Below, one piece after another: positions 427-40,761 of a stretch of 42,478 nt of DNA (position 1 is the stretch's first letter; every line of letters starts with the position of its first letter). The translations under genes and the position numbers were made by a program. The stretch comes from an uncultured archaeon. Lineage in GTDB: Archaea; Iainarchaeota; Iainarchaeia; Iainarchaeales; JAAZKV01. The notes beneath the pieces were generated by a model that was given only the letters and a program-made list of their open reading frames with translations, was not told the origin of the DNA and ran no database searches. The DNA lies in NCBI GenBank assembly GCA_964402905.1, contig CAYODU010000002.1, forward strand, positions 1 through 42,478, written 5' to 3'.

Positions 427-431
427 TTTTT

Positions 432-713: not shown

Positions 714-744
714 TTCAGAAAAAAAGATTTCGAAGGTTTTGTTT

Positions 745-1890: not shown

Positions 1891-1906
1891 TTTTTAGGAA
1901 AAGGAA

Positions 1907-2821: not shown

Positions 2822-2891
2822 GTTTTGATTAATTTAATTATTTGTTTGTTATTTTAATTTTTGCATATGGTTAACAAATTATACACTATTT

Positions 2892-6437: not shown

Positions 6438-8465
6438 ATGGTACTAACTAATCTTTTTAATCCTAAAGTAGTTGCTGTTATAGGGGCATCAAACACGCCC
6501 GGAAAAGTAGGTTATGCTATAATAAAAAATCTCATGGAAGCTGATTTCTCGGGAGAAATAATCCCAATTAATATTAAAGAAAAAAAAGTTCAGGGGATAA
6601 CTGCTTATCCATCCGTACTAAAAGTAAAAAAAACGATTGATACTGCGATAATAGTTGTTCCTGCAAAAGTTGTTGTACCAGTGATGCAGGAGTGTGCTAA
6701 AAAGAAAATTAAGAATGCTGTTATAATAACTGCCGGTTTTTCTGAAACGGGGGAAGAAGGAAAAAAAATTGAAGAAGAAATAAGAAAAATAGTTGAGAAA
6801 CACAAAATGCACGTTGTTGGGCCCAACACGCTTGGGATAATCAATACTGAGAACGGTTTTAATGCTTCTTTTTCATCTACTTTCCCGAGTCAAGGTAATA
6901 TTGCGGTTGTTTCTCAGAGTGGCGCCCTTTGCACAGCAATACTTGACTGGGCGAGACAAGAAAAAATTGGTTTTAGTAAATTCATTAGCACCGGAAACAA
7001 ATCTTTTATGAGTGAGTGCACTTACTTTTCTTTTCTTGAAAAAGATACTCGGACAAAAGCAGTTCTTGTATATATGGAATCAGTAAGAAATAATGAATTG
7101 TTTTTGCATGCTGCTGCAAAGCTTGCTAGAAAAAAAACAGTTGTTTTGCTTAAATCGGGCAGATCTCCTGCAGGACAAAAAGCTGCTTCTTCTCACACTG
7201 GGGCTCTTAGTGTTGATGATAATATTTTTTCTGTAGCTTGTGATAAAGCAAATGTTATAAGAGTTAATTCAATAGAAGGATTTTTTGATATGGCAAGATT
7301 GTTATCAAAAATAAAAAAGCTTGATGGTTTAAATTTAGCTGTTGTTACTAATGCGGGTGGTCCAGGAGTAATAGTTGCAGACTCTGCATCCGTACACAAT
7401 TTTCCTTTACCTGAATTCAGCAAAAAAACTTTGGATACAGTAAAAGAAATTAATCCACATGCATCTAATCCGCTTGATCTTATTGGAGATGCTCAGCCGA
7501 TTGATTATAGGACTGCACTAAAAGTTCTTCAAAATGATCCAAAGATTGATTTTGTATACACTTTGCTTACTCCACAGAGTATGACTGATCCAGACAGAGT
7601 GGCCGATATAATTGTTGAACTTAACACGAAGAAACCAATTATTTGTTCTTTTATTGGAGGAACAAGCGTAAGCCATGCAAGGCGTTACATGCGAGAGAAT
7701 GGGGTTTCAGAATTCGAGACTCCTGAAAGAGGCATAAAGGCTCTTTCAAAACTTAAAAATTATTTTGAACGAAAAGCAGTTAAAAAAATCTTTGAGCAGA
7801 AAACAAATCCTCTCCCAGAAACACAAAAAGTTATTGCAGAAAAAAGTTTGTTATCTATGCCCGAAACATTTAACATATTAAAAGAATTTAACATCCCTTT
7901 TTGCAAAACAGTTTTTATTTCAAAAAAAGAGGATATAGAAAAAATTGAAATTAATTTTCCAGTTGCATTAAAGGCTGCTGGGGGAATTCCACATAAAACG
8001 GATCTTGGTTTAGTCAAAGCAAATATTACAAATAAAGATGAACTTGCTAAGACTGCTGAAAAAATGTTTGCAAAGCTTTCTGAAATAAAAAAGCCAGTGC
8101 TTTTGGCAGTGCAAGAAATGGTTGTTGGGCAGGAAGTACTTGTCTCAAGTATTACAAATGAGTTTGGAAAAATAATTACTTACGGACTTGGGGGGATATT
8201 TGTTGAGATAATGAAGGATGTTTCGCAAAAAATTGCTCCAATAAATGATTCAGATATTGAGGAAATGCTTAGGGAAGTAAAGGGAACAAAAGTGCTTCTG
8301 GGCGCGAGAACAAAAAAGAAGTATGATTTAGAATCATTAACAAAAATAATAAAACAAGTTTCTTTGCTTGCATTAACTTATCCTGAACTCAAAGAAATTG
8401 AGCTCAATCCGGTGATAGTAACTGAGAACGGCGCCTTTGCAATAGACGCAATAATGGTGAAATAA
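6438..8465 (+). CDS. acd: Acetate--CoA ligase (ADP-forming), fused alpha-beta
   Basis: N-terminal CoA-binding motif VAVIGASNTPGKVGYAI, a succinyl-CoA-synthetase-like middle part (VSQSGAL, phosphohistidine-type SSHTGAL) and a C-terminal ATG-grasp domain; 675 aa. Confidence 0.9.
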   Translation: MVLTNLFNPKVVAVIGASNTPGKVGYAIIKNLMEADFSGEIIPINIKEKKVQGITAYPSVLKVKKTIDTAIIVVPAKVVVPVMQECAKKKIKNAVIITAGFSETGEEGKKIEEEIRKIVEKHKMHVVGPNTLGIINTENGFNASFSSTFPSQGNIAVVSQSGALCTAILDWARQEKIGFSKFISTGNKSFMSECTYFSFLEKDTRTKAVLVYMESVRNNELFLHAAAKLARKKTVVLLKSGRSPAGQKAASSHTGALSVDDNIFSVACDKANVIRVNSIEGFFDMARLLSKIKKLDGLNLAVVTNAGGPGVIVADSASVHNFPLPEFSKKTLDTVKEINPHASNPLDLIGDAQPIDYRTALKVLQNDPKIDFVYTLLTPQSMTDPDRVADIIVELNTKKPIICSFIGGTSVSHARRYMRENGVSEFETPERGIKALSKLKNYFERKAVKKIFEQKTNPLPETQKVIAEKSLLSMPETFNILKEFNIPFCKTVFISKKEDIEKIEINFPVALKAAGGIPHKTDLGLVKANITNKDELAKTAEKMFAKLSEIKKPVLLAVQEMVVGQEVLVSSITNEFGKIITYGLGGIFVEIMKDVSQKIAPINDSDIEEMLREVKGTKVLLGARTKKKYDLESLTKIIKQVSLLALTYPELKEIELNPVIVTENGAFAIDAIMVK

Positions 8466-17134: not shown

Positions 17135-17827
17135 ATGAGTCTAATAGAATTAGCTTTGGTTTTAGCTTTCCTTTTTTTATTCTCTATTTTTTCTCATAAG
17201 AAAAAGCTTTTGAATTATGAAGGAATATTTATCGCAAATGCAGTTGGTTTGGCAGCAATAACTTATGGGCCAAATTCGCTACTTTGTTTTTTTGCAGTAG
17301 TAATGTTTTTTGTAATTGGTGAAATTGCAAGTACTTACCCCAAGAAAAAACACGAACAGAGAAATCTTTGGAATGTTGTTGGGAATTCCTTGCCAGCGCT
17401 TGCAATTCTTTCACTTGTGGTTATTTACCCAGAATACTCTTTTTATTTTCAGCTAGGCTTTTTTGGAGCTATTTCGGCTGCACTTGCTGATACACTTTCA
17501 TCAGAGATTGGTTATTATTCAAAGTCAAAGCCAGTTCTTATAACTACATTCAAAAAAGTTAATAGGGGAATTGATGGTGGAGTAACTCTGCTTGGAGAAT
17601 ATGCGGCACTTGCTGGTTCAATTGCAATTGCTCTGCTTTATTTTTTAGTTACACAAGAAATTTTTTCAGCAATAGTTATTATCTTGGCAGGGATTGTGGG
17701 AACAAATGTAGACTCATTATTTGGTGCATTATTTGAAACAAAAAAGATTTTAAATAACACCCACGTTAATCTTATTGGGAGCACTGCAGGAGCACTATTT
17801 GCTTTTCTGCTAAGCTTTTTTTTGTAA
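17135..17827 (+). CDS. DUF92 (TMEM19-like) integral membrane protein
   Basis: Polytopic membrane protein with the GAISAALADTLSSEIG motif (family ADT..SE.G) and GIDGGVTLLGEYAALAGS. Confidence 0.7.
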   Translation: MSLIELALVLAFLFLFSIFSHKKKLLNYEGIFIANAVGLAAITYGPNSLLCFFAVVMFFVIGEIASTYPKKKHEQRNLWNVVGNSLPALAILSLVVIYPEYSFYFQLGFFGAISAALADTLSSEIGYYSKSKPVLITTFKKVNRGIDGGVTLLGEYAALAGSIAIALLYFLVTQEIFSAIVIILAGIVGTNVDSLFGALFETKKILNNTHVNLIGSTAGALFAFLLSFFL

Positions 17828-17848
17828 GTTAATTATTAATGTGGTTAG

Positions 17849-18367
17849 ATGGCACTTGAAATAATATATTTTATTGAACTAATAGTTGCGTATGTAGTAC
17901 CACTTTATTTTGCAAACGCAGCCCCGATAATATTTCATGGAAAAAAACCTGTTGATTTTGGAAAAAAAATTGGTAATAAAAGAATCCTTGGTGATGGAAA
18001 AACAATTCTTGGGGCACTCTTTGGAATAGTAGTTGGTTCTTTCTGTGGAATTTTGATTTATTTAATTTTCCCTGAAATACAGATAATTTCATCCAATTAT
18101 ATTTTACTCGCATTTCTTTTATCTGCCGGAGCAATACTCGGTGATATCGTAAAAAGTTTTTTTAAGCGTCGCGTAGGCATTAAAAGCGGGGAAAAATGGT
18201 TTTTAGTTGACCAACTTGATTTTATTATTGGTGGGCTTGTTTTGAGTTCTTTTTTTCGCTTGCCCGAGATAGAATTAATTGTGTTTTTGTTTGTTGTAAC
18301 AGTTTTTGTTCACACTGCAACAAATATTGCTGCTTTCAAATTAAAACTAAAAAAGGTCCCTTGGTGA
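17849..18367 (+). CDS. carS: CDP-archaeol synthase (CDP-2,3-bis-O-geranylgeranyl-sn-glycerol synthase)
   Basis: 172-aa membrane protein with YFANAAPIIF..KPVDFGK....RILGDGKT.LG and the C-terminal DQLDF motif typical of the DUF46/CarS family. Confidence 0.8.
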   Translation: MALEIIYFIELIVAYVVPLYFANAAPIIFHGKKPVDFGKKIGNKRILGDGKTILGALFGIVVGSFCGILIYLIFPEIQIISSNYILLAFLLSAGAILGDIVKSFFKRRVGIKSGEKWFLVDQLDFIIGGLVLSSFFRLPEIELIVFLFVVTVFVHTATNIAAFKLKLKKVPW

Positions 18368-18936: not shown

Positions 18937-20553
18937 CTATTCTTTTTCTTCAATGTTACCAACAATCTTTTCAATTATCTTTGTGAATGCTGGTCTAGTA
19001 ATGAATACTCCGATTAATGCTCCTACAATAGCAACTACTGCAAAGCCGTATAACTTATCTAAACCTGGATAATTTCTTGAGAATAAAACAATCGGGCCCA
19101 TTACACCAATTATTGTGAAAGCCGAAGTCATTATTATGAATAAAGCCGCTTTTGCTCTCTTAATAAGTGATTCGGTAGCCCCACCTTTTCTTCCAATTAT
19201 CTCATCAGTAATAACTATTTCTGAATCAACTCCGGTTCCTATTGCTGCGATTAATCCTGCGAAAGCAGCTAAGTCAAGTGGTCTTTGTGTTAGAGCAATG
19301 AAACCAAGGTTAAGAAGAACTTCGCTTGTACCAATAATAAATATTGGAATGATTAGTTTTATCATTCTGTATCTTATTGCTATTACTGCTCCAACTGTTA
19401 AAAAAGCAATTATTCCCATTAGGAATACATTTGTAAGGAATGATTCTCCGAGAGAAGGGGAGATAGTTTCTTTTGAAATACTTTTAACAGGGGTTGGTAA
19501 AGAACCGGATTCAAGCAAAACAGTTAGTTCTTCTAAATCGCTTCTTGCTTCTTCAACAGTTTCTCTTGTACCGCTTATTCTTAAATTACTAAAGCTTTTT
19601 GCTTGTGAAATATCTGTCACATCTTCATTTGTTATTCCTTCTGTTAAGCCAATTACTTGTTCTGCGTGCAACGCTCCCCAAATCCAAGCGATTCCATCTT
19701 CTTCTTTTTGCACAGTCACTTCAAATCCCGCATTTTTTAGTTCTTGAACAGCACCTGCTCCAAGATCAGGAGAAACAATAGCGTTCTTTGTCTGACCAAT
19801 TGCACTCGCTAAAACATTTGAATCAAAACCAGCTGGGTCATAAACTACCACATTTAGTTTTGAATCTTCTATTAATCCATCAATATCTGTTTGCTCTGGA
19901 ATTCCGCTTAATCTGTTTCCTATGTAAAGCAAACTCTGATCATTATCGTATTGGTCTTGTGTTAACACGATAAGTGCATCAGGTTTATCTAAAAAGAAAA
20001 TTGTTTTTTCGCATTCATAAACTGGTTTTCCATCAGTACCAAAAGAAACTGCGCTACATTGGTGGAAAGTTTTTTCTTTGAAACTTAGTGTTGCATTTTC
20101 ATTTAAAACAAATGGTAAACTCCACTCAAATAAAACTCCAGTTTTGAATACTCCGTAAGAATTATCTCCGCGCAAAACTTTTTTTATTTCATCTCCGGTG
20201 AAAACAATTTCTCCGTTTAAATTCGCTTCAAATTTTCCTTGTTGTCTTATACGCGATTCTATTTTTTCAAGTTCTATTGGATCTGTTTCCGAAACCTGTA
20301 TCATAATATATTGTGATCCAACTGGAGAAACAATTACATCTTTTAATCCTGAAGGATCTATCCTTTGTGAAATTATACTTGCTATTCTTGATATTTCATC
20401 ACCCGAAACAGGATTTTGTAATTCAACCTGATAAAGAGTTCCTCCTTCAAAATCAAGTCCTAGTTTTACTCCCATATTCATTATTATTCCAACAGCAATC
20501 AAAATTGCTCCGACAAGAAGCAGTATTCTCCAATACTTAATCAAAGGATTCAC
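18937..20553 (-). CDS. secD: Protein-export membrane protein SecD
   Basis: N-terminal TM helix then GLDFEGG, a large extracytoplasmic domain and a C-terminal 5-TM bundle. GTG start overlaps the secF stop (GTGA) and follows AAGGTGAG. Confidence 0.85.
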   Translation of the reverse strand: MNPLIKYWRILLLVGAILIAVGIIMNMGVKLGLDFEGGTLYQVELQNPVSGDEISRIASIISQRIDPSGLKDVIVSPVGSQYIMIQVSETDPIELEKIESRIRQQGKFEANLNGEIVFTGDEIKKVLRGDNSYGVFKTGVLFEWSLPFVLNENATLSFKEKTFHQCSAVSFGTDGKPVYECEKTIFFLDKPDALIVLTQDQYDNDQSLLYIGNRLSGIPEQTDIDGLIEDSKLNVVVYDPAGFDSNVLASAIGQTKNAIVSPDLGAGAVQELKNAGFEVTVQKEEDGIAWIWGALHAEQVIGLTEGITNEDVTDISQAKSFSNLRISGTRETVEEARSDLEELTVLLESGSLPTPVKSISKETISPSLGESFLTNVFLMGIIAFLTVGAVIAIRYRMIKLIIPIFIIGTSEVLLNLGFIALTQRPLDLAAFAGLIAAIGTGVDSEIVITDEIIGRKGGATESLIKRAKAALFIIMTSAFTIIGVMGPIVLFSRNYPGLDKLYGFAVVAIVGALIGVFITRPAFTKIIEKIVGNIEEKE

Positions 20554-21590
20554 TTTCTCACCTTTTCAACGAACCAAAGTAGTATTGGTGCATTCATTAA
20601 CCAAGTAGAAATAACGTCTCCAATTAAACCAAACAATAATATTGCAGCGATTTGGTAAATTACTTCGATTTGGTAAAAATAAGAAACGATTATCATTGCA
20701 ACAAGTGCTGCCAGAGTAGTTCCTGTCATTGTTAAACCAGTTTTCATTGAAGTAGTTGCCTTTTCTCCCGGAGAACCTGTTTTTCCTTTTAACATTCTTG
20801 ATGTTAGCATTATGTCTGTATCAACAGAGTAACCCACAAGCATTAGTAGTGCTGGAATTGTTGTAAGTGACATGGGTATTCCTAGTAAAGCCATTCCTGC
20901 TAATCCGGCAAGAACATCAAAAATCATTGCTTGAATTATTGCTATTGATGGAACAACTTGTCTGAATGCAAGGAAAATTATTACTACAATTACTATCATT
21001 CCTATTATTGAAATAAATATTGCTGATTGCATTGATGCTGCTCCAAGGGTAGGAGAAATTTCTCTTTTTTGGAATTCTACATCACTTCCTAAACCAAGTT
21101 TTTCAACTAAAACATTTTGTAATTTAACAGAAAAATCTTCTTTGTGTTTTGCCAGAGCATCTTGTGCCGCTAATAATGCTAATTTTGAATTACTGAATTC
21201 TTGTGCACTTCCGCCAAGTTTTTCTATAACTTGGTTTGAATAAGAAATTGAATCAATATCATTATCTAAATTCAATTCAGCTAAATTCAAAAGAGCCTCT
21301 GCTTCGCTTACAATAGGGTCTTTACTGTACTGTATGTATGCTCCGTATCCAGTTGGCGAAGCAATAGTTGATACTTTTAGATCAACAAGAGTGAATTCTT
21401 GTCCCAAAGATGAAACAATTTGTTGTTCTGACAGGGGGCTAGAAGAACGGACAATTAAAACGTTTCCTCCAGTTAAGTCAATTCCGGGGGTCAAACCTGG
21501 GAAAATTAAAATAAGTATTAGCATTGGTATGAGCAAAACGATTGGAACAATCATGTATTTTTTGTAGCGTTTGCCAAAATAGTCGTCCAT
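20550..21590 (-). CDS. secF: Protein-export membrane protein SecF
   Basis: TM1 then GIDLTGG, a periplasmic-type domain and a C-terminal TM bundle. Immediately upstream of secD, the archaeal secFD order. ATG 21590 (MDDYFGKRY) is preferred to the TTG at 21611. Confidence 0.8.
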   Translation of the reverse strand: MDDYFGKRYKKYMIVPIVLLIPMLILILIFPGLTPGIDLTGGNVLIVRSSSPLSEQQIVSSLGQEFTLVDLKVSTIASPTGYGAYIQYSKDPIVSEAEALLNLAELNLDNDIDSISYSNQVIEKLGGSAQEFSNSKLALLAAQDALAKHKEDFSVKLQNVLVEKLGLGSDVEFQKREISPTLGAASMQSAIFISIIGMIVIVVIIFLAFRQVVPSIAIIQAMIFDVLAGLAGMALLGIPMSLTTIPALLMLVGYSVDTDIMLTSRMLKGKTGSPGEKATTSMKTGLTMTGTTLAALVAMIIVSYFYQIEVIYQIAAILLFGLIGDVISTWLMNAPILLWFVEKVRK

Positions 21591-29893: not shown

Positions 29894-29902
29894 GTGGTAT
29901 TT

Positions 29903-30259
29903 GTGGGATTTTTTAACAAAGTAATGGTTAAAGAAGAATCAGTTGATTTAGAAGACTTTTTGAATAACTTGGATGAAGTTCAAGAAGAAACTTATGATAA
30001 CGCTGATGCCTTCGTTAAACCAATGGATTTAGTTGTTGATGCAGATGTATCAGCAATAATGAACGAAGTAAAACAAGGAAATATTGTATTAGTTAATATT
30101 GCCGATTTAGCAAAAAGAAATGCGATGAAACTAAAGGAATTAATCGGAAGCGTAAAAGGCGAAGTTAAAGCTATTGATGGTGATATTGCAAGAATATCTC
30201 AAGGAAGAGTACTTGTTACTCCATCAAAAGTAAAAATAATTAAAAGAAAAGGACAGTGA
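29903..30259 (+). CDS. sepF: Cell division protein SepF (DUF552)
   Basis: MGFFNKVM amphipathic N-terminus, acidic linker (VDLEDFL), then GNIVLVNIADL...IDGDIARISQGRVLVTPSKVKI, co-linear with archaeal SepF as I recall it. GTG 29903 follows GGGGTGGT. The track start GTG 29894 is an alternative. Confidence 0.8.
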   Translation: MGFFNKVMVKEESVDLEDFLNNLDEVQEETYDNADAFVKPMDLVVDADVSAIMNEVKQGNIVLVNIADLAKRNAMKLKELIGSVKGEVKAIDGDIARISQGRVLVTPSKVKIIKRKGQ

Positions 30260-31062
30260 AGGAAATGTTTTTAGGCAATCCGTCATTGCCTTTAGAGTTC
30301 CCTGTTAATGAAGCGCTTAGCAAAGTTAATGGAATTCTCACAAAAAAAAATTGGCACAATTTCGAAGTAGGGAACCTAAAAATGGTTCTTGTGCCATACT
30401 TTTTTTTTCATTATCACTACTATATTGAAAGCGAAAACAAAGAAGAATCAAAAAAAGTTATTGAAAAATCTTTTGATGGTTATTTGGCGCTTAATGGCGT
30501 TACTTTGGAAATGGAAAAAAATTCTGCAGATCTAATAAAAAAATATTTGAAAAAGCTTTCCAATGAAGCACCTAGTATGCCCTTTGAAGAAAAAGAAACT
30601 CTTCTTGAAAAAAAAGAGTGTGAAAAAGTAATTCGTTTTAAATCAGCAGAGCACTTTAAAATACCAAAAGAAAATATTCTCATTTCAAGTATTAAAAAAG
30701 TTTTTTTCCCGCTGTATGAAACATTCATTGAAGTAAATAAACAAAATTTTGAAATTGTTATTAATGCTACGAACGGAGAAGTCCTAGGTATTGGTGCTGT
30801 TCCTGAAAGAGAAAAAGGTTTCTTGGAATTAACAAAAGAAACTCTTACGGAATTAAGCGAACCCAAAGCATGGCTTACATATTCAAAGGGACTTTTCACA
30901 GAAACAGGAAAAGCAATCGGGGGCAAAGCAAAAAATGCTACACAAATTATTCCAAAGATTTCAGAAAAAAAAAGTTTATCATCAATTTTCTCAAGCAATT
31001 GGTTTCTTTTTTTGATTATTATTCTTGCATTGTTTTTAATTTACCTTGCGCTTTTTGTATAA
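30256..31062 (+). CDS. Hypothetical C-terminally anchored membrane protein translationally coupled to sepF
   Basis: GTG 30256 overlaps the sepF stop (GTGA); ATG 30265 is an alternative. Single C-terminal TM helix (WFLFLIIILALFLIYLALFV). Two internal modules share the pattern hK.VhhPhY...N(A/L).NG. Confidence 0.6.
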   Translation: MKEMFLGNPSLPLEFPVNEALSKVNGILTKKNWHNFEVGNLKMVLVPYFFFHYHYYIESENKEESKKVIEKSFDGYLALNGVTLEMEKNSADLIKKYLKKLSNEAPSMPFEEKETLLEKKECEKVIRFKSAEHFKIPKENILISSIKKVFFPLYETFIEVNKQNFEIVINATNGEVLGIGAVPEREKGFLELTKETLTELSEPKAWLTYSKGLFTETGKAIGGKAKNATQIIPKISEKKSLSSIFSSNWFLFLIIILALFLIYLALFV

Positions 31063-31141: not shown

Positions 31142-33799
31142 TTATCCCGTAACATATGGTCGTGAAGTGCACAAAGAAGAGCTTGCATCGGTAGCAACAA
31201 CACTTTCCTCTGTTTGTTTTATTGAATCAAGTATTTCGCTTGAATTCCAGAAAAGAGTCCAGTTTGATTCTGCTAAAGTATTGCTTTTGTTTACACAAAC
31301 ACTTTCTTCTCTTATTGCATTAAACAAATCGCTTAAAGTTAATACTCTAAAAGGCGTTTTGCTTGAATCAATTTGAACAAAGCAATTGTTTTGATTTGGT
31401 TCGCAACTGTCATCTAGGCTATATACTCCAAAAGAAGAATTTATCCTTATATAATTTGCATTTGATTGCATTTCACTTGTTTGGGGTACATACAAAACAC
31501 TTTCAAGGTAAAGCGAATTATTTGGTTTTGTTGCTCCCAAAAAGCTTAGATCAAATTCTCCTGCTGAAATGTTTGTATCAGGTTCTCTGTAAGGTAACAT
31601 TTCATCTGAAACAGAAATGTTTTTACAGCCTTCTCCAAGAGTACTTCCAACACCTGTCCATAAAGTAAATGCATCATAATAATTCACTTCTCCGCCAGTG
31701 TAGTAAATACTAAAGTTGGTGTTAGCGTAACCATTAATGTCAACAACTTTTGCAAAGAGTGGTGAAGCAAAACCAGTGTACATTTTAACATCTGATAAAT
31801 CGGTTTCTTCGTCATTTTTATTAAACTCCATCAAAGTTCCTCGTTTTAACATATTTGCTGAGTTAAGTGAAGAAAGAATTTTTGGGATATCGTCTTCAAA
31901 CAAATCATTTGGGCTGTCATAGAAAAACCAATCAAATGAATCGGGTTGCACTAGTGAAGGAGTGAGATCAATTGTAAGTTGTACAGACGGATTTAATTCT
32001 CCGTTTATGAAAAATCCAATTTCGCCACCTTTAATAGTTATTATTACATGGTACTTGCCTGCGCTTATTGGGCTATCAACGCTAAAAGGATATCCTCCAT
32101 AAGTAAACTCTGCGTTAGTTAAGAGCTCTTTTAGGAGAGAAATATTTGCTACAGCGTTTTGTCCTTCAAAGATACTATAATTTTCTAGTCCATTCTGTGA
32201 AAGGAAAAGACTATACCGTTGATCATCACTAAAACGATCTACTGAACTTTGTATATCTTGTACAGAAAAATTCTGTGATTTTATGTAAGCATCAAACTGT
32301 GTTGTCTCAGCCTCTTTTTCCCTTAGAGTTTGCAGTTCTCCTGCATCATTATTTCCTTGTAGTTCAATGTTGATTTCATTGCGTATATCCATAGTTTTTC
32401 CTATTTTTCTTGCTAATTCAACCAAGAACTCGTTTTGTGAACAATAAACCCAGTCATCATTATCTGCGCCATCGATTGCTAATGAGTCGTCAAGTGTTTT
32501 TTCATCACACTCATCAATAGAAACAATTTCGTTGTTGCTATTTGTGCTTCCTCCAAAGCCGATATTAATTCTTGGAACATAAGATTCGCCAGTCTCTCCA
32601 ATCATTCCATTTTCTCCGATGCACCCAGTGAAATCATAATTTGATTTTGTTCCGATTTGGAATTTTTGTTTGTCAAGTAAACCAAATTTATAAGAGATAG
32701 GTTTTGATGAAGTATTGTTTAAATAATACTGGTTGCATGCGGGTGTAATAAGTGTTGGTACGGTATAGTTAACATCAAGCCAAACAAAAACACTATTTAT
32801 TGGCAAATGGCTTTTGTCTACTGTAAGATTTCCACGTATAACCATTTCTCCATTAAACTTGTCTATACCCCAGCCAACATAATTTTTATCAATACTTCCG
32901 GTAATCCCGTTCCCAGTCCACCTTAATTCATAGTTATCCAGATTAATATCGAGAGGAGATCTATTAGCTAAAGTAAAAACAATTTGTTTATTGTAAACAC
33001 CAAACTTTTCTGTAAAACCCGTATTCAAATCATTTGTTCCAGAAACAATTAAAGAAGGAAAACCAACATATATGTTGTTAACAAATTGTGAAGAGTACTC
33101 GCTTGGCATAGTATTAGCGATTGGAGAATTGGCTATTTTTAATGCATAAGTGTGTCCGCCCGCAGTTGCTAAATTATAACTGATTGTGTTTTGATCACCT
33201 ATCCCTTCTAGTTCTGTGCTTTTTACAGTGCATCCTCCGGATGAAGTGCATTTGTAAAGTCCTGATGATTGTGGTGTCCCAAAGGTAGCACTACTATTTG
33301 TTGTTGTTGGATTATTAAGAGCAATGTTTTCATCTAAAAATATACCTCCAAAAGCCATTTCTTTTTGTGTTACTCCATTGTCAAATACAAAGTTGTATTT
33401 TCCAAAGCCACTTGCTGTTAGTGTGGCCCCCGGAACCCCAAAAAAAGGATAATTGATATTATTGACTTGTATTTCCGAACCTACAACGCAACCCGAAACA
33501 GAAATTGTTGGGTCAGCAGTTTCCAAAGAAGAGCTGTTTACGCAATTAGCTACTCCACATGTGGTCCCACCTCCGCCACCCCCTCCTCCGCAGCATATAG
33601 CTCCATTTCCTGAGGGACATCTTGTTCCACAGTGGCCCCAATCATCACAATTTATTGTGCCCCTACTGCAGGCTCTTCCATTGTTATAATTAAAATTGCC
33701 CCAAGTATTTCCGTATTTTGTCCCAAGTGCAGTGACTTCGCACACAAATAAACTAAAAACAAAAATAAAAATTAAAAACAAAATAAATCCTTTATTCAT
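31142..33799 (-). CDS. Large secreted surface protein (885 aa), signal peptide, Cys-rich/Gly8 N-terminal module, no anchor
   Basis: GGGTGA Shine-Dalgarno. ATGA overlap with the upstream gene. Signal-like MNKGFILFLIFIFVFSLFVCEVTALG. CSRGTINCDDWGHCGTRCPSGNGAICCGGGGGGGGTTCGVANC. Many N-x-S/T sequons. No C-terminal hydrophobic segment. Confidence 0.75.
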   Translation of the reverse strand: MNKGFILFLIFIFVFSLFVCEVTALGTKYGNTWGNFNYNNGRACSRGTINCDDWGHCGTRCPSGNGAICCGGGGGGGGTTCGVANCVNSSSLETADPTISVSGCVVGSEIQVNNINYPFFGVPGATLTASGFGKYNFVFDNGVTQKEMAFGGIFLDENIALNNPTTTNSSATFGTPQSSGLYKCTSSGGCTVKSTELEGIGDQNTISYNLATAGGHTYALKIANSPIANTMPSEYSSQFVNNIYVGFPSLIVSGTNDLNTGFTEKFGVYNKQIVFTLANRSPLDINLDNYELRWTGNGITGSIDKNYVGWGIDKFNGEMVIRGNLTVDKSHLPINSVFVWLDVNYTVPTLITPACNQYYLNNTSSKPISYKFGLLDKQKFQIGTKSNYDFTGCIGENGMIGETGESYVPRINIGFGGSTNSNNEIVSIDECDEKTLDDSLAIDGADNDDWVYCSQNEFLVELARKIGKTMDIRNEINIELQGNNDAGELQTLREKEAETTQFDAYIKSQNFSVQDIQSSVDRFSDDQRYSLFLSQNGLENYSIFEGQNAVANISLLKELLTNAEFTYGGYPFSVDSPISAGKYHVIITIKGGEIGFFINGELNPSVQLTIDLTPSLVQPDSFDWFFYDSPNDLFEDDIPKILSSLNSANMLKRGTLMEFNKNDEETDLSDVKMYTGFASPLFAKVVDINGYANTNFSIYYTGGEVNYYDAFTLWTGVGSTLGEGCKNISVSDEMLPYREPDTNISAGEFDLSFLGATKPNNSLYLESVLYVPQTSEMQSNANYIRINSSFGVYSLDDSCEPNQNNCFVQIDSSKTPFRVLTLSDLFNAIREESVCVNKSNTLAESNWTLFWNSSEILDSIKQTEESVVATDASSSLCTSRPYVTG

Positions 33800-35475
33800 T
33801 TTTTCACCCTTTTATAAGTTGAAAGAATAATTAGTATAGCAACTATTGCAATAAGTATTGCTGTTACCACAATAAATGGGAGTATTTTTTCGCTTTCATT
33901 TCCGCTACTTAAAGGAATACATTCTGCTCGACAACAGTCTCCTTGCGCTGTTTTGTATGATCCGCCATTGCAGACAAATCCACTTTCACAAACAACACCA
34001 CCACAAAAAGCATCAAGGATATTACCGTTTTCATCAACTGCAATATCAGAAACAGAATTGCTTAAGTCAGTTGAGCTATTAAGTTTTATGTCAAACACCT
34101 GTTGTTTTTTTACATCAAGATCATCAACAACTAAAGTTAGATTTTTTTCCTCAACAGAATAATTTTTTGTTATGGATGTGAGAACACTGTTCACAGTGTC
34201 TTCATTTAAAGTGTTTTCATTTTCCAAAAGAATTATTTTTGCATTTATAAGTGCTTTTGTTAATTTTACTTCAAGAACAGAATTTTGTTTATTATAACCC
34301 CACTTTACGTTTACAGGGAGAGCTGTCTTTACATCATATGCATCGGTAAGAGATTTCAAATCAACATCAAAACATTCTCTTTCATATTCCTTTTTGTCTT
34401 TTTTTGTTACAGTACAGAGTCTGTCAAATGATTTTACAGACAAAGAAAATTCTTTGCTTAGGACTTCTCCAGAATCAATTATTGGAATATTGGCATACTC
34501 CTCTTCTTTTTTATTTCCTGCTTCAAATACTTCAATTCCCAAAGAAAAATTGTCAAATGCTATTTCGCTGGAACCATCAGAAAGCCCAGAAATTACAGCT
34601 GTTACTTTGTACTCTTTTTTTTCAATTCCGCTGATAAAAACTTTTCTTATTTTTGCAGTGGGGCCGGAAACAATTAATCTATTCTTGTAAATAGATTCAC
34701 TTTTACCTGATGCATTTTTCAAAACAATATTTATTTCGTAAACTGAAGAAATAATTGGGGCAGTCAATGAAACATCAATTGTTTTTTCTTCTCCGGCAGA
34801 AATTGAGGCAAGCGAAAAATTTTCTTCTGTTGGATTTGCACAAAAAGCAGTTGCCCAATCACAAAAAGAAATACTTAATACTAAATTCTTTTGCTGTACT
34901 TTTGAATCATTTCTTACAACAACTTTTCCACTGAATTCTTCTCCAGAGTTAACTGTAAAACCGGTTTGTCCAGAAACATTTTCTTTTCCAAAAACAGTTT
35001 TTGTTCTGTCAATGATAACTCTTTTATCCTCTGTTCCTTTAACAGAAAAGTTTTCTGAGAGTGGGTTGTAGAGAATATTGCTTGCCCCTATTAATTTTGA
35101 TTTTACTGCCCAAGCATAAATATCAAGGCGATAGTTTCCTGCCTTTTGTGGTGGCAGATTAAAATCAATTCTTTTTGTAGTGTTAGGCAGAGTCCAGATA
35201 TTTGAAATAATTGATTCGCTTACAATATTGCCACTGCTAAATTGTGAAGGGTAACTATAATCGCCTTCTGTTATCTGTAAAACAATTTTTCCATCGAGAA
35301 GTGGGTAGGCTTCAAGATTAGTAAGATAAAGGCTTCCCGTAATACTTTGGTTCGTATCAAACACTTCTTTACTCATGTAAATTTGTCCAAAACCATTCCA
35401 ATTTAATTCGTCTGAAGGCAGGGCAAATGCTGCTCCGAAAAGCAAAATCAAAAACAAAATACAAAATCCTTTCAT
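33796..35475 (-). CDS. Surface protein (559 aa) with signal peptide, beta-sandwich-like repeats, C-terminal Cys knot and TM/basic tail
   Basis: ATG 35475 follows GTTGAT plus 4 nt. Signal peptide MKGFCILFLILLFGAAFA/LP. C-terminus CGGVVCESGFVCNGGSYKTAQGDCCRAECIP-LSSGNESEKILPF-IVVTAILIAIVAILIILSTY-KRVKK. Confidence 0.75.
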   Translation of the reverse strand: MKGFCILFLILLFGAAFALPSDELNWNGFGQIYMSKEVFDTNQSITGSLYLTNLEAYPLLDGKIVLQITEGDYSYPSQFSSGNIVSESIISNIWTLPNTTKRIDFNLPPQKAGNYRLDIYAWAVKSKLIGASNILYNPLSENFSVKGTEDKRVIIDRTKTVFGKENVSGQTGFTVNSGEEFSGKVVVRNDSKVQQKNLVLSISFCDWATAFCANPTEENFSLASISAGEEKTIDVSLTAPIISSVYEINIVLKNASGKSESIYKNRLIVSGPTAKIRKVFISGIEKKEYKVTAVISGLSDGSSEIAFDNFSLGIEVFEAGNKKEEEYANIPIIDSGEVLSKEFSLSVKSFDRLCTVTKKDKKEYERECFDVDLKSLTDAYDVKTALPVNVKWGYNKQNSVLEVKLTKALINAKIILLENENTLNEDTVNSVLTSITKNYSVEEKNLTLVVDDLDVKKQQVFDIKLNSSTDLSNSVSDIAVDENGNILDAFCGGVVCESGFVCNGGSYKTAQGDCCRAECIPLSSGNESEKILPFIVVTAILIAIVAILIILSTYKRVKK

Positions 35476-35534
35476 CAAAATCAACTCATAAATATAATTT
35501 TTCTATTATTTAATCCTGCCCGCAAATGCATTTT

Positions 35535-38500
35535 TTACTGCACTCCACTAATCTTTCTGCTCCCCGCGGTTTCCATAGAAACAAAATCTGTTATATCAAC
35601 TGTTCCATAAGTTATGCTTTGTCCGAAAGTTTTTACTAAAGAACTTTCAATTTGTGTGGAATTAAATGGAACATAATCTTCTCCTACAAAAGTTGCTTTA
35701 AGAGAGTCTCCGTCAATCCATGCAAGCACATTTGGGTTATCGGTTCCAATAATTATTTTTGGATTATTAATTGCAGTATAAACTGTTTGTGACAAATAAT
35801 TGAGATCCACAAGGCGTTTTATGCTGTATATAATTCCCTGCTTTGCAGGAATACTTACTGGGACGCTTGTGAGATCATACGAAACGGTTTCAACAGAATT
35901 ATTAAGATGAGTTTCCGGTTGGCTTTGTATAAAGCTTGTGTGTGGGGTAATACTTGTTTCCAAGAGTTCAGAATCCTGATTGCCCAAAATATTCAAGTCA
36001 ACTCTGCTTATTTCTTTTGCAGGGCTAATTGAAATATTTATTTTTCCTTGAATAAATGCAGTTTGTGCTGAAGTAATTTCGCAAGAATCTAGCGCAAGCG
36101 CACTTTCATCCTGAACACAAATTGGTTTGCCCAAAGGATCAAATTCAAAATTCCAACTTGTCTTTTTATGAACAACATTTCCGTCTTTGTAATTAATAAT
36201 AATATTTCCATCAATCGCTGCCCCGTATGGCCCAGTATCCCCAAAGTAATCATTGTTAATGTCAATGAAACGGAATTGCAGAGTATCTATTTTGCCGACT
36301 TCATTTTCAAGGTTAAAGCTTAAACCATAGTACTTTACTGGGTTATTTCCAAAATCATAATTGTTATCCCAGTTCATATCCACAAAATTCACATAATTTC
36401 CATCAACAAGATATGCGCTGTTTTCAATATTAATTTCTTGGTTAACAGTAGATCCCCAAGTCTGTACAATAACATCTACATATGTTGTTACAAAGCCTGA
36501 CCCCGTAACAGTTGCTTTCGGAGTGAACACTACAGTAGTGTAATTTGGTTTATTTGTGTTTAACTCATATCCAAATGCATTAATGTTTACAGAAGGAATC
36601 AAATAATCTCCAATCGCAATGTATTGACAGTGGTTTGTAAAAACTAAATCCATTTCACTTGTATTGCTAATTGTAAAATCAAAATAATCTTTTGAAATTG
36701 CAAAGCACTGATTGGGATTAGACAAGTGCACATGTGCTCTTGCCGCAATAGCAAACTTGTTTCTTGTTTTATCAGCAAACTTTGCCTTGACAATCAAAGG
36801 ATAATAACCTAAAATATCAGTAAAATTTGGAGCACCTTTTGTCGAATCAAATGTAATATTTTTCCCAGTAATAGTGTATTTTCTTTGTGCATTCGCATTT
36901 ATTGTTTTTTCTATTTTACAAGAATCGCCTTCAGAAGTATTGCATAAAAGCCCCACATCAATAGAAATAGTAACTGGTCTGGAACAATGATTTTTTATAG
37001 TAAAATCTTTTTGATTGCCCCAATAAAGATTTATTTCTTCTTCAAAATAAGAATTTTGTGTTGAGCCATCTGAACTGATATCAATGCATGCAAGACTTGG
37101 GTCGTTTGCATTACCTGAGCCAGCATAAATTTTTTGCCTGTTAATCGGAGCATACTCGTTTTCTTCATTATTTGCATTAACAGAAACATAAACACAATCC
37201 TGCATATATTCATAAACGCCGTCTATTTGTTGAACAAAATAATTTTCATCAATGTTTTCGCTTGGAGCTGAAAGACTATACTCTCCCACTTTTACTTGTT
37301 GTGTACTTCTACAGTTCCTATCAACTTCAATTGAAACATCTGATATAATTGGGTTTCCAGAGCCAAACCTATCAGTAACTTCTCCGTCAAATAACTGGTC
37401 AGGGAATCCTGCAAGGAACTCAGCGCTAAGAAAAAGAGTTTTTCCTATTGACTTTGCATCAACAAAACCTACAAATGTATTTTGGTCAAAGTGCGCTACA
37501 ATAACAAGCCAGTTAGTTGAATTAAATTTGTCTGCATAAACTCCCGTATCAAAAGTTGTGCTTACACCACGTGGAGAAATATTTACTAAACTGCTTGAAA
37601 GAATTTTTTCTGTTGTAGTTTTACCGCCGTCAAAGAAAATATTTCCTTTGCTTGCACTATAGTTTGCTGTCAGGCTTGGCTGTCCAGAATAAGAATAAAT
37701 TTTTAAGGAACCATTTGTAAGAGAAGTTTTTGTGTTGTTTCTTAGCTGTATTGAAAGATCATTTTCTTGTTGTGGATAAATAGTGACTTTCTCTATATTG
37801 TTAATATTATTTGATTTTATATTAAATAATCGGTTACCAAGTTTTAAACTGAAAAACATACCACTATGTATTGGCTGGCCTACAAAGAATTCTTCATCCT
37901 GTAAAGGGGTTTCTGAAGCGCCCACAGAATTACTCGAATTTTTTTCTTTTGCCCTGTATTGGAATAACAAACTATCATTATTTTCTGCGTTAGGACTAAC
38001 TTTAATTGATGCTACAAAAGAATAAGTTCCAACAGGTACATTTTCATTGCCCCATATATACCCTGCTTGTCCAAAATAATTTATGTTGTTACAACTAGTA
38101 GGAAAATAATAATTATCGTCGTGGATTCCTGAAATAGAATCATTTGTTGAATTATTGCATTTGAATAAGTTTTGTTCTTTTCGGTAAGGATCTGGATCGT
38201 TTGGAACAGAATTTGTAAATTCTACAGGGCCATTAGCTCGAACCATGCCAAGCAACGTGTTATAACTAATCGGGGCTCTTGTTATAATATCAAACTTTAA
38301 GTTGTACTCTCCATTAATATCTAAAGCTATAACACTTGATTGTGGGGTATAATAACTTTCATTTTTTGAATAAACATCATCAAAATAAACACTTACATTA
38401 GAATCGTTTTCTCTGCAATCAGGATCGCTATCACCACATTGAGCTTCATTGCAAATGTTGTTGCTTCCGCAATCACAATCAGGGTCTCTTGCTCCGCAAG

Positions 38501-40634
38501 ATATAGTGCATTGCCCATCAGCTACACATGATTCGCAATCATTATCATTAGTGGAGTCACATTGTTCTGGGCAAATTTGGTCATTTGATACACAAGGTCC
38601 GCAATCAGGATCAACATCGCATAAATCATTACAGTAACCATCTGCTCTGCAAATACCTTGGGTGTAAAGCTTGATTAGTAATGAGTTTTCTCCAAAAGCC
38701 AATCCGTTTAAATAAATTGTATTTGGAACATAGTTAACTGCTTTACCAGTAACCGCAAGTTGAGAATTCTTCTCGTAACCCTTGCTTGTAAAAAAACCGC
38801 TTGATTGTGAAAGTTTTTCGCTAAAAACCAAATTATTTTCTTCAATAAAAAAAACATTTACATCAGCATTAGTAATTCCTGCGAGTGTTTGTGCATCAAC
38901 TAATTCTATTTTCAAATAAGCGACATCAATATTAATATTAACATCAAAGTTGACTGTTTGATTTACATCGATGTCTTTTGTGTGAGTTATCTCTGAAAAC
39001 GCCCCATCAAAGTAAGCGGATGCAGCATAAGTTCCCATTGGAATTTGTGGGTAATTTGCTACGCCTGTGCTGTTGGTCAGAATTCCATCTTTTTTTAATT
39101 TCCAATTTTTTATTTGAATGCCGTCAATAATTATGTTAAGGTATAAAAATGCGTTTGCTCTTTGAAGCAATTTTCCGTTGCTTGATTTAACTGTTATGGT
39201 TGCCATGCCACTGTTTGAAGAATTAGCTTTTTTCAAAACTATTGTTTCATAGGAATCAGTAAGTTTAAGCAACGCAGGTTTAAATGGGTTGTATAAGTAA
39301 CCTTCTTTTTCCAAAGTAGCAAAAGCATGTGTGCTCATAATAGAAAGCCCTGTTCTTTTGTACAAACCATTTTTGTCAGTAACGTTTGGTGCACCAGTGT
39401 AATAATAAGAAGTATTATCTGGTGTGGTTCCAAAATACACTCCATTGCTATCAGGAATTGCGTCAAACATTTCAACATTGACATTTGATAAAGCGTTTCC
39501 ATCTTCGTCAACAACTTTAAAGAAAACCATTCTCTTGTCTTCCGGTCTTATTTCTGTTAGCTTAATCATAAGTGTTGTCGTCTGTCCCTTTTTGATATTT
39601 ATGAATATGTTTGAGTCAGCGCTAATCGGGTAATAGTTTTCGTCGCTTATAGTTATCGCATAACTTCCTTCTTCAAATATCTTCTCAGCCCAGCCACCAT
39701 TATCTGTTATTGCATAATCATTAATTGGGCCCTTGTGGAAACTCACTCTTATTTTTGAAAGCATTGTGTTTCCATTAGTTCCTGAAGAATAAACCCCAAC
39801 TTTTGCCGTGCCTGTGTTTGGATCACTAATCTTTTGGAGAGTTATATCAAATCTGTCTTTGTTAGTGGGCAAAGTAACTGCAGTTCCAAGAGCCTCATAA
39901 CCTGGAGCATATGCTTCTGTAACAATAAATGCACAGTTGTTTTCGTTTAAAACAAATAATCCATCATTTGAAGCGTCATCAAGATCAGTAACTCTTTTTA
40001 CTTGGCCTGGGATATCTTTGTTGGCACACTTAAATTTTATGTATGACATTCCATAACTATCAACAATTGTATTCATTGTTTCCGAACTAATCAGACCCAC
40101 TGTGTAAGTTGAAGGAAAAATTTCTTCTTCTGATGCCCTTTCAAGTAAAATACTATTTTCTTTATCGCTTAGTTCAATAATTTCATCTTTAATTCGTTTG
40201 TAACCATCTTTGCTTGCAGAAATAACCCCGAAAAAGATTGGGGGATTGCCAAAAAATATTGAGCCGGCTAATTCAAAAAAATTTTGTTTAATTGAATTTG
40301 TTGTAACAAAAGCTTTTCCATCTGCACTCGTTCTTTCGCTGAAAATTTCGTTATTTATGGTTCCCGCAAGCATAACTCCTCCCAGAGAATTTTTTGTTTG
40401 CGAATCATAAACACTGAAAGTAATATTGTAGGGTGAAGTAAATTTCACTAAGTAAAGAGAAAAACCAAAGATAAAAAGAACAATCAATAAAAATAAAACA
40501 AAACTTGGAATTACTTTGTCAATAGGGTCGATTATCTTGTATACATGTGTTTTTGGATCAATTTTGTCTAGTAAACTATACCATTTATCTTCAAAAAGAT
40601 AGTAGAAATTTTTTATTTTCTCAGAAAAACTCAT
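35535..40634 (-). CDS. Giant N-terminally anchored surface protein (1699 aa) with PEGA/CarboxypepD_reg-like repeats and a Cys/Asp-rich DPDC module
   Basis: ATG 40634 follows GGTGTTGAT plus 4 nt. 44-aa cytoplasmic head (KIKNFYYLFEDKWYSLLDKIDP...IIDPIDK) then a TM helix (SFVLFLLIVLFIFGFSLYLV). Repeated ~90-aa modules ending in GY-type motifs. Cys/Asp knot at aa 662-740. Long Asn/Ser/Thr-rich ectodomain with many sequons. Confidence 0.8.
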   Translation of the reverse strand: MSFSEKIKNFYYLFEDKWYSLLDKIDPKTHVYKIIDPIDKVIPSFVLFLLIVLFIFGFSLYLVKFTSPYNITFSVYDSQTKNSLGGVMLAGTINNEIFSERTSADGKAFVTTNSIKQNFFELAGSIFFGNPPIFFGVISASKDGYKRIKDEIIELSDKENSILLERASEEEIFPSTYTVGLISSETMNTIVDSYGMSYIKFKCANKDIPGQVKRVTDLDDASNDGLFVLNENNCAFIVTEAYAPGYEALGTAVTLPTNKDRFDITLQKISDPNTGTAKVGVYSSGTNGNTMLSKIRVSFHKGPINDYAITDNGGWAEKIFEEGSYAITISDENYYPISADSNIFINIKKGQTTTLMIKLTEIRPEDKRMVFFKVVDEDGNALSNVNVEMFDAIPDSNGVYFGTTPDNTSYYYTGAPNVTDKNGLYKRTGLSIMSTHAFATLEKEGYLYNPFKPALLKLTDSYETIVLKKANSSNSGMATITVKSSNGKLLQRANAFLYLNIIIDGIQIKNWKLKKDGILTNSTGVANYPQIPMGTYAASAYFDGAFSEITHTKDIDVNQTVNFDVNINIDVAYLKIELVDAQTLAGITNADVNVFFIEENNLVFSEKLSQSSGFFTSKGYEKNSQLAVTGKAVNYVPNTIYLNGLAFGENSLLIKLYTQGICRADGYCNDLCDVDPDCGPCVSNDQICPEQCDSTNDNDCESCVADGQCTISCGARDPDCDCGSNNICNEAQCGDSDPDCRENDSNVSVYFDDVYSKNESYYTPQSSVIALDINGEYNLKFDIITRAPISYNTLLGMVRANGPVEFTNSVPNDPDPYRKEQNLFKCNNSTNDSISGIHDDNYYFPTSCNNINYFGQAGYIWGNENVPVGTYSFVASIKVSPNAENNDSLLFQYRAKEKNSSNSVGASETPLQDEEFFVGQPIHSGMFFSLKLGNRLFNIKSNNINNIEKVTIYPQQENDLSIQLRNNTKTSLTNGSLKIYSYSGQPSLTANYSASKGNIFFDGGKTTTEKILSSSLVNISPRGVSTTFDTGVYADKFNSTNWLVIVAHFDQNTFVGFVDAKSIGKTLFLSAEFLAGFPDQLFDGEVTDRFGSGNPIISDVSIEVDRNCRSTQQVKVGEYSLSAPSENIDENYFVQQIDGVYEYMQDCVYVSVNANNEENEYAPINRQKIYAGSGNANDPSLACIDISSDGSTQNSYFEEEINLYWGNQKDFTIKNHCSRPVTISIDVGLLCNTSEGDSCKIEKTINANAQRKYTITGKNITFDSTKGAPNFTDILGYYPLIVKAKFADKTRNKFAIAARAHVHLSNPNQCFAISKDYFDFTISNTSEMDLVFTNHCQYIAIGDYLIPSVNINAFGYELNTNKPNYTTVVFTPKATVTGSGFVTTYVDVIVQTWGSTVNQEINIENSAYLVDGNYVNFVDMNWDNNYDFGNNPVKYYGLSFNLENEVGKIDTLQFRFIDINNDYFGDTGPYGAAIDGNIIINYKDGNVVHKKTSWNFEFDPLGKPICVQDESALALDSCEITSAQTAFIQGKINISISPAKEISRVDLNILGNQDSELLETSITPHTSFIQSQPETHLNNSVETVSYDLTSVPVSIPAKQGIIYSIKRLVDLNYLSQTVYTAINNPKIIIGTDNPNVLAWIDGDSLKATFVGEDYVPFNSTQIESSLVKTFGQSITYGTVDITDFVSMETAGSRKISGVQ

Positions 40635-40675: not shown

Positions 40676-40692
40676 AAGTAATTAATAAAGCT
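40676..40692 (-). promoter_or_regulatory. TATA-like element upstream of the giant-protein operon
   Basis: The minus strand reads gctttattaattac about 45-55 nt upstream of ATG 40634, leaving a short leader that carries the GGTGTTGAT Shine-Dalgarno. Confidence 0.3.
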
Positions 40693-40761
40693 TTTCATTG
40701 CTGTTTTTCTATGGAAATGTGTATTTCAAAAACAGTTTTTTTTATTTTGATTTATTTGCCA

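Follow-up and report, generated by a model that had tools for sequence, protein, structure and literature searches.

An undescribed, phylum-restricted three-gene system of surface proteins in Iainarchaeota

The sequence analyzed here is a stretch of 42,478 nucleotides (nt) from an uncultured archaeon (contig CAYODU010000002.1 of assembly GCA_964402905.1, positions 1 to 42,478 of the forward strand), the whole of which we refer to as the window. It belongs to an Iainarchaeota (Diapherotrites) genome, has a G+C content of ~33%, and carries the archaeal markers PolD DP1/DP2, Orc1/Cdc6, SepF, a Hel308-type helicase, and SecDF. Three minus-strand open reading frames (ORFs), hereafter the triad, together occupy 9493 of its 42478 bases (22% of the window). 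An earlier note, made by a model from the sequence alone, had described the three-ORF layout at 31142-40634, the topologies of the products, and an ATGA overlap at 33796-33799, all of which were confirmed by direct reading and hydropathy. Its description of a co-directional unit of surface proteins from undescribed families was likewise borne out, with no Pfam or NCBIfam match above cut-off. The three ORFs are evidently genuine genes rather than chance ORFs, since they have homologs with E-values down to 0 and lengths unexpected by chance at 33% G+C. The triad is a real, undescribed, phylum-restricted surface-protein system, and we put at about 0.55 the probability that it is a conserved Iainarchaeota operon building one cell-surface assembly, in which a globular module of the third product is carried on the stalk of the first. 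The genes and their control elements are as follows (lengths in amino acids, aa):

35535-40634 (-): gene 1, the giant (family A3); 1699 aa, ATG start; N-in single-pass membrane protein
33796-35475 (-): gene 2, the middle protein (family A2); 559 aa; type I membrane protein; ORF open from a TTG at 35484 (562 aa)
31142-33799 (-): gene 3, the secreted protein (family A1); 885 aa, ATG start; no anchor
40682-40694 (-): promoter element AAAGCTTTATTAA, resembling a B recognition element (BRE) plus TATA box, ~50 nt upstream of the giant's ATG
33796-33809 (-): gene 2/3 junction, with a Shine-Dalgarno-like GGGTG at 33805-33809 and the ATGA stop/start overlap at 33796-33799

By Kyte-Doolittle hydropathy, the giant has one hydrophobic segment, within aa 34-68. 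In the family alignment (A3) this transmembrane (TM) helix is followed by a conserved FSSPY, with no small-x-small cleavage site, and the signal-anchor is probably uncleaved, a permanent type II anchor. The giant divides into six parts:

40512-40634 (-): aa 1-41, cytoplasmic head YYxFEDKWYxxLDKIxxKxPVYKIIDPIDKVIPSF, the best-conserved part of the giant (A3)
40437-40511 (-): aa 42-66, TM signal-anchor, from hydropathy
38670-40436 (-): aa 67-655, proximal stalk of repeated prealbumin/CarboxypepD_reg-like beta-sandwich domains, from weak CarboxypepD_reg, PEGA, and fn3_3 matches and internal hhalign repeats
38415-38651 (-): aa 662-740, 18-Cys insert at the hinge, with four C-x5-6-C-x3-C-x5-7-C units carrying DG..C...C..DPDC
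36600-38345 (-): aa ~764-1345, family-specific distal region, also present in the single-chain class F giants described below
35538-36599 (-): aa ~1346-1699, C-terminal region not found in those fused giants, with the conserved end ...ISG(V/T/S/A)(Q/N)

The CarboxypepD_reg (PF13620) score of the giant itself lies under the cut-off (15 vs 32.3 bits). Its orthologs P0026-P0029 have precomputed PF13620 matches, and paralogous giants that share its head, and whose stalk is homologous to its own, give PF13620-type scores of 63-145 bits. After the hinge come ~950 aa specific to the giant's orthologous group. The last ~60 aa (~1640-1699; window 35538-35720 (-)) also match the C-termini of other head-bearing giants modestly (P0126 at 27 bits, P0177 at 17, and P0031 at 13).

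The middle protein has an N-terminal signal-like segment at aa 1-24 and a C-terminal TM segment within aa 527-558 that is followed by KRVKK (hydropathy). As a start codon, the ATG at 35475 fits the homolog alignment. In alignment A2 the order is signal peptide, beta-sandwich ectodomain, 6-Cys knot, TM helix, and basic tail, and conservation is uniform along the protein. This family was found only in triads, with no relative elsewhere. Two of its features are placed as follows:

33919-34005 (-): aa 491-519, juxtamembrane 6-Cys module; C491, C496, C502, C514, C515, and C519 are invariant in 9/9 sequences
33814-33885 (-): aa 531-554, C-terminal TM helix, conserved in A2; KRVKK follows at 33799-33813

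In the 885-aa protein the sole hydrophobic stretch is an N-terminal signal-like segment, aa 1-28 (hydropathy). The rest of the chain was divided with the help of the family alignment (A1) and AlphaFold2 (AF2) models, whose confidence is given as the predicted local distance difference test (pLDDT):

33542-33712 (-): aa 30-86, Cys/Gly-rich N-terminal insert, present in 4/11 sequences (A1 columns 30-130); pLDDT <50
32684-33541 (-): aa 87-372, about three immunoglobulin (Ig)-like beta-sandwich domains; AF2 pLDDT 80-90 (aa 86-370)
31160-32683 (-): aa 373-880, globular module with a Cys/Gly-rich core, a helical segment, and a beta-rich body; strongest A1 motifs, shared with class F C-termini

Within the N-terminal insert region only C86 is invariant (A1). 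Modeled alone, aa 366-885 form a compact unit with a predicted template modeling score (pTM) of 0.78 and a pLDDT of 74.7. The module's motifs are CIGENGMIGxTGE, PRINxGFGG, IDECD, DWVYCSQKEFLVEL, WFFY, YWTGFASS, LPYREPD, and WTLFWN, and conserved acidic or aromatic residues are found among the positions D432, E430, R653, W714, W851, Y583, and Y627. This module is the likely working end of the protein, where conserved Cys pairs and acidic and aromatic residues would suit a binding site. Foldseek searches with the full 885-aa model returned only generic Ig-like matches in PDB (TM-score at most 0.13). For the globular module, Foldseek found nothing significant in PDB (best E 0.024) or BFVD (best E 0.0019, probability 0.28), and the module had no sequence-profile match in PDB. 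In most relatives of the 885-aa protein the chain closes with CxxRE(I/A)LG(G/S), and no known sorting signal fits this end or the ISGxQ end of the giant.

Some features recur in all three products. The earlier note had seen one compact Cys module in each, and all three segments are present (C662-C740 of the giant with 18 Cys, C491-C519 of the middle protein with 6, and C44-C86 of the 885-aa protein with 8). They are not a shared design, however, because only the 6-Cys segment of the middle protein is conserved, and the other two are lineage-specific inserts. The 18-Cys insert of the giant is absent or swapped for unrelated inserts in 8 relatives (A3), which makes it species-specific. Insertions are concentrated at the giant's hinge and at the N-terminus of the 885-aa protein, where species differ in carrying unrelated Cys-rich inserts or none. 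Richness in N-x-S/T sequons, also claimed earlier, holds as a count, with 1.6-2.2 per 100 aa in the triad vs 0.51 in 11 cytoplasmic proteins of the window, but N/S/T-rich composition alone predicts 1.1-1.6 per 100 aa and so accounts for most of the excess. The ectodomains have even Cys numbers and are sequon-rich and acidic. Their beta-sandwich-like content, a further part of that description, is supported by the AF2 model of aa 86-370 of the 885-aa protein and by the CarboxypepD_reg matches in relatives of the giant.

A word-based search of 5.8 billion sequences found 12 homologs for the 885-aa protein, 8 for the middle protein, and ~10 full-length homologs for the giant, which has 21 homologs in all. 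Where the source was named, it was Candidatus Iainarchaeum, Diapherotrites, or simply 'archaeon'. Scanning one genome per GTDB species with alignment A1 yielded 23 loci, including Ca. Iainarchaeum and Ca. Forterrea. Gene contexts were then available for 4 first loci, 19 from the genome scan, and 3 seeded independently from giant homologs, and profiles of all three families were run against every ORF of all loci. All related contigs of sufficient length (~25) have the order giant, ~560 aa, ~850 aa. Co-occurrence in the same order among relatives, proposed in the earlier note as a test, was thus found throughout the sufficiently long contigs, and no loss of conservation was seen. The set is single-copy and universally present in the sampled phylum, with minor exceptions at three loci. 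In L022 (3415-8187) the giant is broken into three consecutive ORFs, and in L024 (8283-8900) the middle gene has just 206 codons and matches only the C-terminal third of its profile; either could be an assembly error, a pseudogene, or a real variant. In L006 the giant is immediately preceded by a second full-length member of the 885-aa family (264-3074), so that this genome reads copy, giant, middle, copy. The triad proteins share 28-60% identity with relatives, vs 58-77% for Orc1, PolD, and Hel308. They diverge ~2x faster than their neighbors, which accords with an exposed position.

Scans of the three proteins against Pfam, NCBIfam, PHROGs, and PADLOC gave nothing above threshold, and sequence-profile searches of PDB with alignments A1, A2, A3, and A5 gave no match. 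An exact-sequence look-up of the window's 885-aa protein returned no record, and the literature searched describes neither the operon nor the head motif. In these libraries and this literature, the three families and the globular module are undescribed as well. Weak Pfam matches to Wzt_C and Laminin_G_3 were set aside as chance, being unreproduced when every A2 and A5 member was scanned. Paralogy among the three triad proteins was rejected (hhalign probabilities <2%), as was a viral or defence-system origin (no PHROGs, PADLOC, or viral-contig match).

The stop/start overlap between genes 2 and 3 is kept in 22/22 distinct junctions, as ATGA in 20, GTGA once, and TAATG once, which upholds the translational coupling that the earlier note had proposed from the window's overlap. 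All 22 junctions also have a GGTG/GGAG-type purine-rich motif 8-14 nt upstream, and in the window GGGTG lies 6 nt upstream of the gene 3 ATG. This motif is encoded within part of the middle protein's conserved KRV(K/R)K tail. The gap between genes 1 and 2 varies from -4 to 127 nt among related loci. Upstream of the giant, 13 related loci have an element AAAAGCTT(T/A)AT(T/A)AA, by its form a BRE plus TATA box, 45-90 nt before the start. The motif by itself is not over-represented in the window, so the evidence for this promoter is its conserved position only. A possible internal promoter before gene 2, ATTATATTTA at 35489-35501, is a weak candidate, since the ATG is too near for a canonical TATA-to-start distance and the element is unconserved across loci.

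The head of the giant reaches well beyond the triad. No Pfam model covers it, and a profile built from it found 797 clusters at E<=1e-3 and 405 at E<=1e-10 among 1.84 billion representative proteins (clusters counted at 50% identity). The match nearly always lies at residues 3-70 of proteins of 1200-3250 aa; shorter matching proteins are presumably gene fragments. The same head opens otherwise different giants of 1600-2600 aa with CarboxypepD_reg, PKD, Big_1, or SdrD_B repeats. Alignment A4 has 11 invariant positions and the motif YYxLEDK(W/Y)YxxLDKI...PVYKIIDPIDKxxPSF, followed by a TM helix, in proteins of >1000 aa, and the window's giant belongs to this group. Where there are N-terminal extensions before the head, they are K/E-rich and lack a signal peptide, which fits a cytoplasmic location of the head. 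The few named members are Diapherotrites or 'archaeon', apart from one sequence assigned to Izemoplasmatales, whose contig is 4.4 kb long and whose cluster also contains an archaeal sequence. Judged from these matches, the module of head plus TM helix appears to be confined to Iainarchaeota/Diapherotrites so far.

One group of head-bearing giants links the first and third products. Running the three family profiles against all collected proteins revealed giants of 2170-2570 aa whose C-termini match the 885-aa family. We call these class F (17 aligned, members including P0157, P0098, P0088, P0132, P0163, P0039, and P0034). With hhalign, class F columns 1-1215 align to positions 1-1370 of the giant profile (probability 100%, E 4e-73), and columns 1704-2202 align to positions 324-815 of the 885-aa-protein profile (probability 99.9%, E 1.6e-34); the middle protein profile gave no alignment to class F. 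In terms of the window's proteins, class F corresponds to giant aa 1-~1345 followed by aa ~385-880 of the 885-aa protein. Because beta-sandwich repeats could inflate the alignment between the giant and class F, the distal part was compared separately, and giant aa 752-1699 alone matched the middle of class F over 536 columns, at giant aa ~764-1345 (probability 99.1%, E 4.9e-19). On these alignments, class F reads as a single chain of head, TM helix, stalk, distal region, a ~490-aa linker, and globular module, with the triad as its split counterpart. The two are paralogs rather than alternatives, since both occur on one contig, L001, where a class F gene (19191-20627 (-)) lies 8 kb from the triad. 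Relatives of genes 2 and 3 do not come after the class F genes. The homology of class F to both the giant and the C-terminal module of the 885-aa protein gives independent support to the idea of a stalk plus a tip put forward in the earlier note. Right after the class F giant of L028 (8259-10013) are five small co-directional ORFs of 88-129 aa without Pfam matches, which may encode small secreted partners.

Taken together in one assembly, the triad would work as follows. Transcription would begin at the conserved promoter upstream of gene 1, and the giant would be inserted as a Sec-dependent type II protein, its head left in the cytoplasm; the window has a SecDF gene. The proximal stalk would consist of about six prealbumin-like beta-sandwich domains, followed by the variable hinge and then the family-specific distal region. 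The middle and 885-aa proteins would be made as a coupled pair via the stop/start overlap, and the globular module of the 885-aa protein would be displayed at the outer end of the giant's stalk, which is its most likely place because stalk, distal region, and module form one polypeptide in paralogous giants. It would be held there non-covalently by the parts that fused giants lack, namely giant aa ~1346-1699, the Ig-like domains of the 885-aa protein, and the middle protein, of which the first may serve as a docking region and the last as an anchored adaptor. The module would be the working end, binding or possibly acting on an external ligand or surface. The gene layout, the topologies from hydropathy, the synteny and coupling across the phylum, the shared head, the fusion homology, and the fast divergence are observed directly, whereas we infer that the products associate physically, where the module sits, what the middle protein does, and that a ligand is involved.

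Sequence divergence bears on this assembly as well. A mirror-tree comparison controlled for Hel308 (11 species) gave a partial Mantel r of 0.51 (p 0.0015) between the giant and the 885-aa protein, a co-variation that lends supportive but weak backing to joint function. Several points weigh against the assembly as proposed. The mirror-tree signal may come from the shared fast evolution of surface proteins, with distances near saturation, and the partial correlations of the middle protein are weak (0.27 with the 885-aa protein, p 0.06, and 0.25 with the giant, p 0.09). The middle protein is tied to the other two only by synteny and coupling, and nothing in the fused giants aligns to it. Fusion or fission among paralogs would point to functional linkage and not necessarily to binding of the split products, and the proposed contact among the three products comes from genes and sequence comparison. 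Some loci have space for an internal promoter before gene 2, so that the giant could be expressed at a level differing from that of the pair. Lastly, the most conserved loop region of the module, aa 373-453, is modeled at low confidence, and the searches gave the module no fold or sequence relative that would point to a function.

A wider reading of the head, which we consider doubtful, takes the triad as the universal core member of a phylum-specific surface-display system in which the head ties hundreds of different giant ectodomains to a single partner inside the cell. Possible partners are a factor for insertion or targeting and the machinery of division or of the cytoskeleton; the triad stands beside SepF and a conserved tail-anchored protein in many genomes. 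The anchored adaptor may then present a globular module of new fold on a split stalk. If this were true, archaea would have in the head a sorting or anchoring signal of a new type, and the module would represent a new fold for ligand binding or catalysis.

A two-component S-layer offers another account of genes 2 and 3. In it, gene 2 would supply a SlaB-like membrane stalk and gene 3 the SlaA-like canopy subunits of the cell's paracrystalline lattice, with the giant as an accessory envelope protein. As in the SlaA/SlaB pair of the Sulfolobales, a secreted, anchorless, Ig-rich beta-sandwich protein is encoded beside a co-expressed partner with a signal peptide, beta-sandwiches, and a C-terminal TM anchor, and both pairs are fast-evolving and lineage-restricted. 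Hydropathy, alignment, and coupling agree on this likeness for genes 2 and 3, as a topological resemblance only, and the adjacency and coupling of the two genes and the single-copy, universal, fast-evolving character of the set within the sampled phylum speak for it too. Against it, no SlaA/SlaB homology was found in Pfam, NCBIfam, or PDB profile searches, Foldseek against PDB gave only generic Ig-like matches, and there is no sequence or fold similarity to S-layer proteins in Pfam or PDB. The triad also differs in having the anchor gene first and then its partner, in including a third, N-anchored giant in the unit, and in having its module fused to giants elsewhere. Since that module ends N-anchored giants, it is more readily seen as a displayed tip than as a lattice tile. 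In the middle protein, a coiled-coil stalk is not apparent (alignment inspected by eye, no coiled-coil predictor used). Moreover, a different protein, the 1039-aa MSTP-like A0A2G9N319, has already been proposed as the Iainarchaeota S-layer by homology and lattice modeling (bioRxiv 10.1101/2024.05.28.596244); the triad is set apart from it by description only, and no Pfam match to MSTP-like (DUF1608-type) tile domains was seen at E<=1 in any of the three proteins. We regard the S-layer account as unlikely.

It is also unlikely, in our view, that the genes encode three independent co-transcribed surface proteins that share regulation and export and form no complex, in which case gene 3 might, for example, encode an enzyme or binding protein that is released, and gene 2 a receptor unrelated to it. 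In favor of this, the families are mutually unrelated, the middle protein has no evolutionary link to the fused giants, and the conserved acidic and aromatic residues of the module could equally serve a soluble lectin or hydrolase. However, the strict order, the stop/start coupling, and the single-copy co-inheritance exceed the needs of co-regulation, and the fusion architecture together with the co-variation of the giant and the 885-aa protein points to joint function.

The remaining alternative concerns lifestyle. Genes for PFOR (pyruvate:ferredoxin oxidoreductase) subunits, an ADP-forming acetyl-CoA synthetase-type protein, DUF92, and CDP-archaeol synthase lie at window 22-2821, 6438-8465, and 17135-18367, and the window further encodes DnaK/DnaJ/GrpE and ribosomal proteins. 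The PFOR, acetyl-CoA synthetase, and CDP-archaeol synthase genes indicate fermentative energy metabolism and at least one lipid-synthesis step of the organism's own, in agreement with a putatively free-living lifestyle, as which that of the Iainarchaeota is regarded (PMC12892359). This gene content is unlike that of an extremely reduced symbiont. The rationale of the earlier note, an episymbiotic DPANN archaeon in contact with a host, accordingly loses its basis, and host contact is not implied for a phylum considered putatively free-living. That the triad attaches the cell to a host or partner cell is therefore quite improbable, even though large Ig-repeat surface proteins are typical adhesins, large surface proteins serve host contact in other DPANN lineages (PMC8204110), and hypervariable inserts (hinge and 885-aa N-terminus) with fast divergence would fit an arms-race interface, because besides lifestyle and metabolism the good conservation of the working module across the phylum points to a common ligand rather than to diverse hosts.

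The stalk-borne assembly that we favor resembles anchored-stalk assemblies and giant repeat adhesins, and the triad is a member of none of these groups by any defining feature that was tested. ESPR-type signal peptides, YSIRK signals, and the LapA N-terminal retention module are family-independent N-terminal elements of giant tandem Ig-like adhesins, which carry their working domain at the distal tip of the stalk. Like them, the triad's giant has a conserved N-terminal element preceding a hydrophobic export segment. It differs in that its head is unrelated in sequence and without a Pfam model, its ~25-residue helix has no cleavage motif, and it is archaeal. Tetrabrachion of Staphylothermus marinus is a C-terminally anchored coiled-coil stalk with a recognizable, non-covalently bound protease. 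The analogy is that of a long membrane-anchored stalk carrying non-covalently bound surface partners, whereas the stalk of the triad is N-anchored and built of beta-sandwich domains, and its partner is without a known domain. SPEARE proteins of the Nanohaloarchaeota and murein-transglycosylase-domain giants of the Woese- and Pacearchaeota are lineage-specific, very large extracellular proteins with proposed surface interactions (PMC8204110). They share with the triad their size, their lineage specificity, and their occurrence in small-genome archaea, but carry recognizable enzymatic or adhesion domains where the triad has only generic beta-sandwich and unrecognized modules, and a split, three-gene, translationally coupled architecture is not described for them in the searched literature. 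Other known systems also failed to match. HAP2/fusexin was absent among the listed Foldseek PDB matches for two models of the 885-aa protein, which has no TM helix. An archaeal type IV pilin would have a class III signal peptide; genes 2 and 3 begin with ordinary Sec-type signals and gene 1 with the 41-aa head and TM helix. As to a PGF-CTERM/archaeosortase anchor, the C-termini are ...ISGVQ in the giant, TM plus KRVKK without PGF in the middle protein, and ...SRPYVTG in the 885-aa protein, with no NCBIfam match.

Lineage-specific families of DPANN archaea are mostly predicted to be membrane-bound or extracellular and are without known function (PMC8204110), and DPANN cell envelopes are almost wholly uncharacterized. 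The triad is a phylum-wide, single-copy target in this field, with three new families in fixed order and with clues to assembly built in, namely the translational coupling and the split and fused architectures. Its shared head, on ~800 clusters of giants, could be a new archaeal anchoring or sorting signal, and its ~500-aa module models confidently yet has no PDB or BFVD relative. As yet, the triad does not answer a long-standing question. If the complex were confirmed, it would show the surface organization of a putatively free-living DPANN lineage and provide handles (antibodies, tags, and landmarks for electron cryotomography) for uncultivated organisms.

Rfam and tRNA scans of the window were empty. 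Next to the triad, on the opposite strand, lies a 268-aa protein at 30256-31062 (+) without a Pfam match, whose single TM helix at the extreme C-terminus makes it tail-anchored. Its start overlaps the SepF stop by 4 nt, and the pair spans window 29894-31062 (+). The same pair of SepF and tail-anchored protein adjoins the triad in L001, L002, L006, L008, L012, and L030-L032, and the 268-aa protein may be a membrane partner of SepF in the phylum.

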